29,617 nt of DNA. Source: an uncultured Candidatus Saccharibacteria bacterium (lineage in GTDB: Bacteria > Patescibacteriota > WWE3 > JAUXAW01 > CAYREW01). Shown here piece after piece: positions 3,104 to 23,948 of this stretch. The notes below the pieces were generated by a model. It made no database searches. It was not told the DNA's origin and was given only the letters and a program-made list of their open reading frames with translations. Location of the stretch: positions 1 through 29,617 of the forward strand of contig CAYREW010000003.1 in assembly GCA_964423535.1 (NCBI GenBank). Reading direction: 5' to 3'. The position numbers were made by a program, and so were the translations under genes. Within the stretch, counting starts at the first letter, position 1; each line of letters begins with the position of its first letter.

Positions 3104-3236
3104 CCCGCGCGCTGCGCACGAAAATCAACTTTTTCTGCCGCCAGAAGCGGCAGTCGTAAGAAACATAAGATTCTTAAGTATCTTACGAGTTTCGACTCAC
3201 ATCGAAACAGGTTGCATTTCCGTGTGCAACGCACGG
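3104..3236 (-). repeat. Insert in 23S H10 (about 133 nt), family B
   Basis: Between H9 and conserved GAACTGAAACATC; core matches the H25 insert. Confidence 0.85.
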
Positions 3237-3436
3237 CACCCGTGCTTGCACACGGGTAGGTTTCCCCATTCGGAAATCCTCGGATAATAATGCTTGCGGT
3301 AGCTCTCCGAGGCGTATCGTTGTATCCGCCACGTCCTTCATCAGCTTTTAGCGCCTAGGCATCCACCATTTGCCTTAAAATAAACGGACTACCCATTAAA
3401 CAAACACATTAAATATGTTTGTTAATGTTCTGTTCA

Positions 3437-3529: not shown

Positions 3530-3659
3530 GCCCTGCCCTCCTACGCATCGCTTGCCTACGGCAAGAAAAGCTTCGGCGGGCATCCTTCGCCCTAAGAACA
3601 TCGGTGGCGAAGGCCATCCTCCGGATGGCCTGCCATCCGAAGCCCGTAAGGGCGTAGGA
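3530..3659. repeat. REP-like palindrome cluster downstream of tRNA-Ala
   Basis: Hairpins cttgcc-tac-ggcaag, cggatggc/gccatccg, gccc-gtaa-gggc; 3621-3664 is identical to 4059-4102. Confidence 0.7.
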
Positions 3660-3734: not shown

Positions 3735-3948
3735 TTAATTATCTACAAACAAGCCACAAACCCGCTCCGACAAGCGAAGCTTCGTCTGAGCTACGTCCCC
3801 GTAACAATAATTGGGTGCAAACAAAAACTGCTGGTTTTTCCAGCAGCGTAAAAAACATAACTAAGCAGTCTATAAAACTAAATCGGTTTAAGCACAAAAT
3901 TCCCGAAGAAGAAATACCTGTTAGTTAATTTTCTACGCATGTGTTTAA

Positions 3949-4016: not shown

Positions 4017-4097
4017 TATTGGTTATGTTTTGGATGGGTCCAGTACGCTTGCCCTCCCCCGGATGGCCTGCCATCCGAAGCCCGTAAGGGCGTAGGA

Positions 4098-4174
<77 letters not shown>

Positions 4175-4294
4175 ACAAACCTTGATCAAAACAGAGAAAA
4201 GTGCTCCCGCCTCACCAGCGGGTCGCCGATGCGGCAACTAAACCACTGAGCTACGAGCCCTAAGTATTTTTCCCTTGCAGGAAAAAAACTTATA

Positions 4295-4319: not shown

Positions 4320-4936
4320 GACGCAGTGTTTTAAACACTGCAATAGTCCTTTTTGAAGCATGTCAAAAATGACGACAATTATAAAAATTGCAGTTAATGT
4401 CATAAATGACATCGCTTCGTGGAAAAAACTCCCTAGAAAGGAGGTGATCCAGCCGCTCCTTCCAGAACGGCTACCTTGTTACAACTTACCCCTGATCACT
4501 GACCCTGCCTTAGCCCGCCTGCTGGCGGTTTTCGGGCAGTTTCAGCTTTCCTGGGCTGATGGGCGGTGTGTACAAGGCTCGAGAACGTATTCACCGCCGT
4601 ATGGCTGACCGGCGATTACTAGCGATTCCGACTTCATGAAGGCGAATTTCAGCCTTCAATCCGAACTGAGACCGCTTTTGAGGATTAGCTCCGCTTCACA
4701 GCTTGGCTACCCATTGTAGCGGCCATTGTAGCACGTGTGTCGCCCAGGGCATAAGGGCAATACTGACTTGACGTCGTCCCCACCTTCCTCCCCGTTGCCG
4801 GGGCAGTTCCGCTAGAGTGATACAACTAGCAGTAGGGGTTGCGATCGTTATAGGACTTAACCATACGCCTCACGGCACGAGCTGACGACCATGTTACCTG
4901 TTATTACTAACAGCACTGACTATACCATCATCCCAA

Positions 4937-5069
4937 TCGCGCCACGCGCGAAAATACGAAACCCTAAATCCGAAATCCGAAACAAAAAAAGCAGATTATT
5001 AAAAAACCACAATTCCATAAATTTCGTATTTCGATATTCGTGTTTCTTATTTCCGATGCGAAGCATCGG
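4937..5069 (-). repeat. Twin-hairpin AT-rich insert inside intron P8 loop
   Basis: cgcgc-cac-gcgcg and ccgatgc-gaa-gcatcgg flank an aaatccg-periodic core, enclosed by P8 tccca (4931-4935)/tggga (5071-5075). Confidence 0.8.
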
Positions 5070-5159
5070 CTGGGAGTTCGGCGTGTTATGGGTAAAAACC
5101 CATCTTCATTTACCAATAACCTCCGATTAAAGGTCTAGTAAAATCAAGTCGATACGGGG

Positions 5160-5807
5160 CTAAGGAAGCTTACCGTTATTTTGGACCTTAACAGAAAAAG
5201 GCCTTATTGATTTCAGAAATTTTTCTGAAATCTGCCATCCAAAATAGAGACAGTAGGTACCGGAAAAACCGTACTTGTAAATAACTGCCTCATAACCAAC
5301 ACTACCAACTATATCTTTATCCATCTCTGCCTCTCTTCTATTCTTGTACACGATCCTACAGTCAGATTTTAAATCTGAAGATACAGAACCATCGCCATCG
5401 AAACGCCCTCCAAAGAAAGCGCAGATGTCCCCTTTTTCTAGCAAAAAACTAGAACGAAGTTGTTCCCAACTTTTAAGACACCTTAAAAAAGGACGAGAAT
5501 TAACATATAGCTGAAATGCCGGTTGTGTGTGCTTATTACCTTTGCAGATTGAAGATTTAACCGCCTGTAAATTAGACGGTAAAACCTTTTTATTAAAAGA
5601 AATGTCTGTAGGCAAATAGACTCTGAGACGAAGCCGAGACAAAGTAAATTGCCTCAACAACAAATCAGAAAATCGTTCTAATAATGGTACTGAAACCGTT
5701 GTAATCCCTACACTACTGCTCCAATAATATTTGTCAGCACACCATAAACCCAAACAGTAAAAATCACTGTCTGTTTTCGCTTCCCAGCTTCCCACGGTAT
5801 TGTCCAT
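5160..5807 (-). CDS. Intron-encoded LAGLIDADG homing endonuclease (two-motif type)
   Basis: Motifs FYCLGLWCADKY and AFFGGRFDGDGSV; lies in the P6 loop of the intron. Confidence 0.88.
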   Translation of the reverse strand: MDNTVGSWEAKTDSDFYCLGLWCADKYYWSSSVGITTVSVPLLERFSDLLLRQFTLSRLRLRVYLPTDISFNKKVLPSNLQAVKSSICKGNKHTQPAFQLYVNSRPFLRCLKSWEQLRSSFLLEKGDICAFFGGRFDGDGSVSSDLKSDCRIVYKNRREAEMDKDIVGSVGYEAVIYKYGFSGTYCLYFGWQISEKFLKSIRPFSVKVQNNGKLP

Positions 5808-5998
5808 TAGATTTAGAATAAACTAAAACTAGGTTGGAGTCCACCGTTATGAGCCGAATTTGCTCCGACAGTTACCCGTCGGAGGGCCAATCGTCAATTA
5901 GCCATGCAACACCTGTTCCGACACCCCGATATAAAATCGGGGAAACCTCCTTTCAGAGGCGGTCGTCGGAATGTCAAGCCCTGGTAAGATTCTTCGGT

Positions 5999-6036
<38 letters not shown>

Positions 6037-6071: not shown

Positions 6072-6722
6072 ACCGTACTCCCCAGGCGGGATACTTAACG
6101 CGTTAGCTTCGACAATGAGTCCGACAAAATCGAACCCATTACCCAGTATCCAACGTTTAGGGCTAGGACTACAGGGGTCTCTAATCCCTTTCGCTACCCT
6201 AGCTTTCGTACCTCAGCGTCAACATCGGGCCAGAAGGCTGCCTTCGCCTTTGGTGTTCCTCCGGAGATCATTGGATTTCACCCCTACTCCCGGAATTCCG
6301 CCTTCCCCTCCCGTGTTCAAGATAAATAGTTTTCTAGGCCTTTCCCCGGTTGAGCCGGGGTATTTGACCTAAAACTTATCTACCCGCCTACGTACTCTTT
6401 ACGCCCAGTAAGACCGGATAACGCTCGAGGCCTCCGTTTGACCGCTGCTGCTGGCACGAAGTTGGCAGCCTCTATTTAACAGGAGTTTACAACCCGAAGG
6501 CATTCATCCTCCACGCGGCGTCGCTGCGTCAGGGTTTCCCCCATTGCGCAAGATTCCTGATTGCTGCCACCCGTAGGTGTAGGGCCCGTGTTTCAGTGCC
6601 CTTGTGGCCGAACATCCTCTCAGACCGGCTACCCGTCATAGCCTTGGTGGGCCTTTACCTCACCAACAAGCTGATAGGCCGCGGGCCCGTCTCTGAGTAA
6701 AGGGTCTAAAGACCCTCCTTTA

Positions 6723-6884
6723 CTAGTTGAAGAACAAAACAGAGAAAAAGAATTACTAATTACTAATTTCTAATTACTAATGAAGTAACAAAATTGTGCG
6801 TTTCTACAAATAAAACCCTACAGGTTTCATTAGAAATTAGTTATTAGATATTAGAAATTTTTCCCCGCTTAGCTCTTCAACTAG
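6723..6884 (-). repeat. Insert in 16S h9: 11-bp stem plus 140-nt CTAATTW-periodic hairpin
   Basis: ctagttgaaga/tcttcaactag enclose inverted arms of ctaatta/ctaattt and ttagaaa/ttagata units. Confidence 0.85.
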
Positions 6885-7190
6885 ACCATGGTGTATTAGC
6901 CAACCTTTCGGCCGGTTATTCACCTCTCAGAGGTAGGTTCCCACGTGTTACTCACCCGTCCGCGACTATCCCGACACGAGGTCGGGACCGTTTCACTTGC
7001 ATACCTTAAGCACGCCGCCAGCGTTCATCCTGAGCCAAGATCAAACTCTTATAAAAAATACGAGTACTATATCTTAACGATAATACGCTAAAATAAAACT
7101 CTTAGAAATACAGCTGTAATTGACTATACAGCTGGTAAAAAAATCTTCCCGCTTTTCAAAATTCATTACATTAATATAAATTAAAAAGCT

Positions 7191-7243: not shown

Positions 7244-7271
7244 TGAGTACAAACAGCAATAAGGGGCATAC

Positions 7272-7375
7272 AATTACTAATTGCTAATTACTAATTTCTA
7301 ATTAATAAGGGTTTTTTCCTACTTGAAAGCGCAATCTCACTTATTAGAAATTAAATATTAGTAATTAGAAATTTA
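7272..7375. repeat. CTAATTW 7-mer inverted-repeat cassette at the pth stop
   Basis: Arms 7272-7309 and 7340-7375; same family as the 16S h9 insert. Confidence 0.8.
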
Positions 7376-23582: not shown

Positions 23583-23948
23583 CTAATCTTTCAGGTTTTC
23601 TCTAGTCATTTTAATTAGATAGTTAATCTCTCTATGTAAACGAGAAAGTTCGTTTTCAAGTTGGTCTTTCTCCTCCTCACTTATTAACTCTCGTCTATAG
23701 CTTACTCTTGTCCAATGCTTAACTTCCAAAACAGAACCGCGCGCATAATAAAAAAACTTGATTTTATCTTTTTTGAAATATCGTCCGTGCCCCTCAGCAA
23801 TATTAGCAGCAGAAGAGTCTATAGACCGAACATACTGCGAACCGATAGTTTTACGAGGAAAATAATCCCATTTAGAAACCTTGTTCCATATATCGTCACT
23901 CAACTCGTTGGAAATTACATAAGCAGGAATATCGAGAAGGCTCTTCAT
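23583..23948 (-). CDS. Four-helix-bundle protein (23S rRNA IVS protein family)
   Basis: Q..RS..S..ANIAEG.GR, KFFYYARGS..E and W pattern; flanked by CTGTTA/TAACAG repeats. Confidence 0.92.
   Translation of the reverse strand: MKSLLDIPAYVISNELSDDIWNKVSKWDYFPRKTIGSQYVRSIDSSAANIAEGHGRYFKKDKIKFFYYARGSVLEVKHWTRVSYRRELISEEEKDQLENELSRLHREINYLIKMTRENLKD

Follow-up and report, generated by a model that had tools for sequence, protein, structure and literature searches.

A heptamer-repeat hairpin element in loop L8 of a 16S rRNA group I intron from a Patescibacteria genome

How does a hairpin element that shares its stem with a 23S rRNA insert come to lie in a peripheral loop of a 16S rRNA intron, and which of the two, the intron or the element, was there first? 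The question is raised by the minus-strand rRNA operon that opens the window, by which we mean the whole 29,617-nt stretch of DNA analysed here. The operon consists of the 16S gene (7051-4439), tRNA-Ile, tRNA-Ala and the 23S gene from 3389, and all features of the intron and of the 23S gene located below lie on the minus strand. The source genome, that of an ultra-small bacterium, 750 kb in size and 86% complete, derives from a microbial-mat metagenome; the named relatives of the window's RecF are Patescibacteria or Microgenomates. A separately assembled Logan contig, from the probable source run, covers 4600-6036 with one difference, other runs yielding pieces only. This contig argues against mis-assembly, though it is not independent evidence. 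The explanation that we find best overall, at a probability of roughly 0.7, is that L8 of a mobile group I intron holds a gene-less copy of a heptamer-repeat family with GC-palindrome caps, probably a near-neutral passenger that, somewhat less certainly, entered once and later exchanged sequence with other copies.

The intron and its extended P8

The 16S gene is interrupted at 4890-5899 by 1010 nt, recognized as a group I intron of the IA type with P7.1/P7.2 from its exon junction (GCATGGCT / GTCGTCAGC), its terminal G at 4890 and its helix pairing. The insertion site after GCATGGCT is what we take to be E. coli 16S position 1060, and the intron is accordingly designated S1060. P1 (GGCT/GGCC, with a U-G pair at the 5' splice site) and P10 (GACGAT/GTCGTC) both form, and P2, P3, P4, P6, P7, P7.2, P8 and P9 also pair, as in an IA-type catalytic core. 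The 3' strand of P3 (5075-5082) pairs with 5860-5853, and J8/7 with the 3' strand of P7 (the S element) was assigned to 4918-4930 from pairing, the Rfam alignment and homologues. In the 5' strand of P7, TCGACT (5147-5152), a compensated U-A pair replaces the usual G-C; this variant (TATCGACT) marks a small clade of introns, most homologues having G-C there. The P6 strands (5792-5786 and 5170-5164) enclose, within L6, a LAGLIDADG homing-endonuclease ORF of 215 aa (5160-5807; Pfam LAGLIDADG_3, 27.3 bits against a cut-off of 22.5), for which 434 relatives exist. Covariation relative to homologues is seen in P7, the base of P8 and P9, and the predicted structure is that of an intact-looking group IA intron. 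PMC11270868 describes group I introns carrying LAGLIDADG_3 ORFs as common in CPR 16S genes.

At its gathering threshold the Rfam Intron_gpI model misses the intron (13.9 bits against a cut-off of 50), yet its weak match (E=1.2) puts 4931-5075 in the model's L8; L8 inserts of this kind thus break Rfam detection of these introns. Rfam matches to miRNA, CRISPR and riboswitch families were discarded as chance.

The segment 4931-5075 is exactly P8 plus L8, from the first to the last P8 base. Its basal helix, assigned from the local ensemble and from comparison of homologues, is formed by TCCCAG (5070-5075) and TTGGGA (4931-4936), the outer pairs having probabilities of 0.95-0.998 in the local ensemble. 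In a fixed-offset table of 39 S1060 introns, some rows of which are off-register (the P8 of L031, for example, is 18 nt and not 31), the first P8 positions pair in 32/39, 37/39 and 31/39 rows, with C-G/U-A/U-G alternation. The sequence-only reading had placed a twin-hairpin element inside P8, and pairing, ensemble, Rfam placement and the 39-intron comparison all bear this out; the segment does not fold outside P8.

The element proper is 133 nt (5069-4937) rather than all of 4931-5075, and comprises, in order, a GC hairpin, a heptamer-repeat stem and a second GC hairpin. The first terminal hairpin (5053-5069), CCGATGC-TTC-GCATCGG, has the stem of the 23S helix-45 (H45) insert, carries two compensatory changes relative to the copy in a related intron (L217, see below) and reads GC-GAA-GC on the + strand. 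The core (4952-5052) consists of an A-rich arm of AAATNCG-type units, an apex and a complementary arm of TCGGATT-type units, which together form a long, imperfect stem. The second terminal hairpin (4937-4951), TCGCGC-GTG-GCGCGA, is a perfect palindrome of 6 bp. The fold as a four-way junction with twin hairpins (-44.3 kcal/mol) and that as a continuous rod (-45.0 kcal/mol including P8) are isoenergetic. Among the window copies tested, that in L8 folds weakest (z -3.2 vs -7.7 to -10.4), and folding on its sense strand is favoured by as much as in its shuffles (-9.3 vs -10.9 +/- 2.9 kcal/mol). The 23S copies, unlike it, fold better on the transcribed strand than shuffles predict. On this comparison, therefore, no selection on the RNA fold of the L8 copy was detected.

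A genomic repeat family, with RNA loops as one filter

The H45 insert (1572-1732) is assigned to the same family as the L8 element by stem identity and local alignment. In the whole genome the sequence CCGATGC-N3-GCATCGG occurs twice, in L8 (5069-5053) and in H45 (1732-1716), and the stem identity noticed earlier holds, H45 being the only other copy; the sequence is absent from 133/133 other genomes of the class searched, in which rRNA operons are often unassembled. Local alignment of the two gave z=9.5, a score reached by 0/300 dinucleotide shuffles, and against four of the window's 23S inserts the L8 element scored above all 300 shuffles (z 4.7-9.5).

The family extends well beyond rRNA. Arrays with a period of seven occur at ~70 places in the genome, mostly outside long ORFs, and heptamer units of the CGAAA type, that of the L8 core, give 35 matches on 18 contigs, copies within the genome being only ~60-80% alike. 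The genome also has six four-helix-bundle (PF05635) genes, several of them bracketed by heptamer arms. We conclude that the L8 element is a gene-less copy of a heptamer-armed hairpin repeat family, which in its loaded form flanks genes for four-helix-bundle 23S-IVS proteins. Since the family is mainly intergenic and flanks such genes, tolerant RNA loops are one filter on it and not its identity.

L8 itself appears to be a recurrent site. A survey of ~80 spans between P7 and P7' in the collected loci found hairpins of heptamers also in L8 of L038 (S1060), of L037 and L057 (site 788) and of L065 (site 516), all Patescibacteria-type introns; among the loci examined this makes at least six introns at three sites with such hairpins, as predicted from their sequences. 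Additional repeat arrays follow P9 in L037 and L057, and another lies in the P5/P6 region of L243. Solitary palindromes of the type usual in these genomes occupy other short L8s, and in seven introns among the loci examined ORFs lie between P3' and P7'. Group I intron loops are thus one more regular landing place for the repeat, and the short IVS-like inserts of Patescibacteria rRNA prove to be copies of a general repeat of the genome, sifted by the tolerance of each RNA.

These results bear differently on three earlier claims. That the family is not specific to rRNA helices agrees with the recurrence in L8 and with the genome-wide copies. That it persists wherever a peripheral RNA loop tolerates it is right as regards L8, but overlooks that the repeat is mainly intergenic and also flanks four-helix-bundle genes. 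That it is not tied to RNase III sites does not follow, the element bringing its own long stem and the genome encoding RNase III, at 6443-6832 of genome contig C36. An RNase III cut in L8 would probably be tolerated by the intron, because trans-spliced group I introns usually break in L8 (PMC3873408).

At the 23S helices that both operons have occupied, the closest relative of the window's operon (L032, see below) carries other cores, and at H45 other caps as well, which shows that contents turn over or are exchanged at fixed 23S sites. The 23S gene of L032 also has, at 3220-3240, a 21-nt hairpin of the cap type (CCTTGTGC stem) standing by itself where the window has no insert; caps can thus occur on their own.

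Other repeats and structured RNAs of the genome were also inspected. The genome's most frequent tandem heptamer is of a second class (AATTACT/ATTAGAA), which makes up an insert within the 5' domain of 16S (6720-6885) and an intergenic copy after pth (7260-7375). At 23583-23948 of the window a PF05635 gene with short inverted repeat arms on either side lies between ftsH-like and polA-like sequence. The RNase P RNA (genome contig C6:15396-15837, L223) falls below the Rfam cut-off owing to a ~100-nt expansion after P8 and an altered P12 region, and the expansion contains no heptamer array; the tmRNA has no insert.

Age and route of the L8 element

Through a junction-pattern scan of GTDB genomes and look-ups of endonuclease relatives, 38 other S1060 introns were collected. 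P8 plus L8 is 12-48 nt in 34/38 of them (median ~26) and long in 4/38. The short state, for which the sequence-only reading had proposed looking in relatives, is thus the usual one, and it includes the closest homologue, L032, which has a 17-nt P8 and no element. L032 is 97.4-97.6% identical to the window in the 16S 3' exon and 78-95% in the intron. With 34/38 homologues short, the element is younger than the S1060 intron family. The claim that it arrived after the intron can accordingly stand for the family; for this host it is doubtful, a colinear element being present at the same junction in the outgroup of the close clade.

Attempts to enlarge that clade, of which only three independent members were found, returned nothing further: a metagenome locus search gave no relative of the endonuclease, the group I introns turned up in metagenomes by a 14-mer P7 scan lay at other sites, with no further S1060 member of the close clade among them, and searches with shorter endonuclease fragments and with 50%-identity representatives added no close relative. 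No S1060 intron was seen in the 60 nearest genomes or in 25 class members of the phylum sample, which is no proof of absence.

The survey also turned up records of other kinds. L032 (CAYXOX010000212.1), L031 and L044 have rRNA operons of Patescibacteria type that contain S1060 introns, yet they are placed in MAGs of Rhodobacterales (L032 among them) or Gammaproteobacteria and are probably misbinned contigs. L040 and L068 are ORF-less S1060 introns in Actinomycetota-labelled records with high-GC flanks, for which reason the S1060 site may not be confined to Patescibacteria. In the S1060 intron of L096 a 20-bp stem closes an L8 expansion of 232 nt that is of another type, not built of heptamers. 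In L157 and L209, intron 3' cores with the TATCGACT P7 variant run into non-rRNA sequence, these introns possibly lying in phage or protein-coding genes.

The colinear element belongs to the next-closest intron (L217, L221, L222), whose endonuclease is 65% identical to that of the window and whose host 16S exon is 83% identical. It shares the junction, the loop orientation and the 6-bp right hairpin, and the window and L217 elements align end to end at 78% identity with 4 gaps, the indels being apical or of one 7-nt heptamer. They are reciprocal best global matches (score 33.5 vs 19.5 for H45), their cap stems differ by compensated changes, and their divergence equals that of the flanking intron (68-78% identity). 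Intergenic copies in two relatives, however, fit the core no worse than the L217 copy (local scores of 108.5 and 103.5 vs 100), so that colinearity is not proof of descent.

The window, L032 and L217-type introns form one clade at 100/100 support in the endonuclease (HEG) tree, which does not settle the order inside it; the window and L032 are paired as sisters by their pairwise identity. One gain with one loss and two gains are equally parsimonious, and a two-state model gives a probability of ancestral presence of 0.77-1.0 under slow to moderate turnover and of 0.07-0.57 under fast. Because the outgroup of the clade has the colinear element at the same junction, we somewhat favour a single old insertion, in the ancestor of the TATCGACT-P7 clade, that was carried between hosts inside the homing intron and lost in the L032 lineage. 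The weak fold of the L8 copy is what an older copy might show. The intron itself probably moved horizontally, since the HEG is 65% identical between hosts whose 16S exons are 83% identical, as conserved as RecF is in its closest, same-genus-level relative (66%; the rest ~40-46%). If the origin was single, the element would have moved along with the intron.

Under the single-entry reading, the element would have entered L8 once, travelled between hosts inside the homing intron and been deleted in the L032 lineage. It is most likely a neutral or near-neutral passenger: it closes on itself, leaves the intron core intact and would depart from the rRNA together with the intron. Recombination or gene conversion within one genome would exchange ends and cores among copies, in keeping with the swapped cores and with a CCGATGC stem shared here only by L8 and H45, and length would change by slippage of whole heptamers.

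The chief competitor, a credible but less probable account, is that L8 was still short when the intron entered this host lineage and received the element later from the host pool, for example from the H45 insert, with L217 gaining its own copy independently. The empty L8 of the closest homologue and the private stem common to L8 and H45 speak for such a gain, as do the independent gains in at least four other introns (L038, L037, L057 and L065). The short P8 of L032 (CCCGAT...ATCGGG), which matches those of the outgroup introns L063, L031 and L086, may moreover be ancestral. But the L217 copy is the reciprocal best match, at the same junction and with the same 6-bp right cap, and the L8 copy is the most decayed one. 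The shared stem, for its part, has just three free positions at which it differs from the family frame CC...GC, and could have been produced by later gene conversion in either direction.

It is doubtful, but would be of interest, that the LAGLIDADG intron served as a vehicle: carried in L8 among distantly related Patescibacteria hosts, the element would then have passed its private end sequence on to the 23S H45 of the new host. If so, transport in mobile rRNA introns would be one of the ways in which repeats of the IVS type cross lineages; travel in homing introns would offer a testable route for the horizontal spread of a repeat family that has no known transposase.

Active mobility as a non-autonomous, REPIN- or MITE-like DNA element, whose C(GNA)G triloop caps an HUH (Y1) transposase would recognize on single-stranded DNA, we consider unlikely. 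The element does have paired terminal palindromes and multiple copies, as such elements do; both caps are perfect palindromes whose stem changes come in compensated pairs, the left cap has the + strand reading given above, and the genome has three Y1_Tnp genes. Neither a target-site duplication nor a target motif was found, however, the junctions showing no direct repeat relative to the empty site in L032; by inspection, the caps are missing from most intergenic copies; and the low similarity among copies in the genome also speaks against it. No reverse transcriptase (RVT_1) was found in the 86%-complete genome.

A functional extended P8 is improbable, whether it were to stabilize the IA ribozyme or to give RNase III a handle, so that the excised intron would turn over faster and endonuclease expression be held down: the recurrence of hairpins in L8, the compensated caps and the RNase III gene would fit it, but 34/38 homologues do without the element, and its sense-strand folding advantage does not exceed that of shuffles. 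Growth in place from a short P8, by slippage and palindrome-templated repair with no transfer, is largely refuted as the origin, since the end design, the AAGCACGAAA-type opening and the heptamer words are shared with 23S inserts (z 4.7-9.5 for the four window copies) and intergenic copies. In its favour are the CCGAT...ATCGG already present in the L032 P8 and the whole-heptamer length differences of the arms, of which one 7-nt indel separates the window from L217 and which have a parallel in Nostoc P6b (PMC4476775); as the way in which length changed later, slippage is still likely.

Known counterparts and neighbouring features

The element is confirmed as real and correctly placed, and it adds a case to an already known kind of repeat hairpin. 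Its closest precedent is the P6b stem-loop of the Nostoc trnL intron. In the tRNA-Leu(UAA) group I intron of the cyanobacteria Nostoc and Calothrix, degenerate heptanucleotide repeats fold into the P6b hairpin, which varies in length by whole repeats and by inserted side hairpins, and in which repeat classes replace each other repeatedly (PMC3488679; PMC4476775). Here, too, complementary degenerate heptamer arms lie in a peripheral loop of a bacterial group I intron and vary by whole repeats; units of the right arm (TCGGATT, TAGGGTT) are one base off the Nostoc Class I motif TDNGATT. In contrast to P6b of the Nostoc tRNA-Leu intron with its Class I/II motif, the hairpin described here occupies L8 of a mobile, LAGLIDADG-bearing 16S intron, is optional (absent in ~90% of homologues), has two GC-palindrome caps and resides in a Patescibacteria host, so that the parallel is with an unrelated phylum.

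The second counterpart is the intervening sequence (IVS) of bacterial 23S rRNA (helices 25 and 45); that in H45 of Coxiella burnetii has tandem heptamers, terminal inverted repeats and an S23p/four-helix-bundle ORF (PMC4990558). The L8 hairpin is likewise closed by terminal inverted repeats, as a long stem in the form of the imperfect rod described above. It has a sister copy in H45, and PF05635 genes, several flanked by heptamer arms, are present in the same genome. Unlike these IVSs, the L8 copy has no ORF and lies not in a helix of the rRNA itself but in an intron predicted to splice out, where it cannot fragment the mature rRNA. It thus behaves as the P6b hairpin does and is, by sequence, a member of the IVS-associated repeat family, without being a classical IVS.

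Tsurumaki et al. 2024 (PMC11270868) report that CPR commonly have, at IVS sites, short inserts that are uncharacterised and are not introns; in the section consulted, inserts are classed per rRNA site and a short insert nested in an intron loop is not described. In a limited literature search we found no description of heptamer repeats in CPR or of such inserts in CPR intron loops. That L8 accepts a large insert agrees with its known tolerance as an ORF site (PMC3873408), but the cargo here is a non-coding repeat hairpin rather than an endonuclease gene.

Broken and hairpin-associated sequences also mark the spacer tRNAs of this operon. A truncated 5' tRNA copy (minus strand, 4240-4262 and 3780-3804) precedes each of them (tRNA-Ile, 4174-4098; tRNA-Ala, 3734-3660), ending in the D-loop and running into GC hairpins. 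L032 has single spacer tRNAs, and the start of its tRNA-Ile resembles the window's broken copy. This suggests disruption followed by replacement. Finally, a ~45-nt twin-hairpin trailer follows both tRNA-Ala (3613-3659) and tRNA-Ile (4051-4097), and the same trailer is found after the tmRNA gene (genome contig C4:27701 onward).
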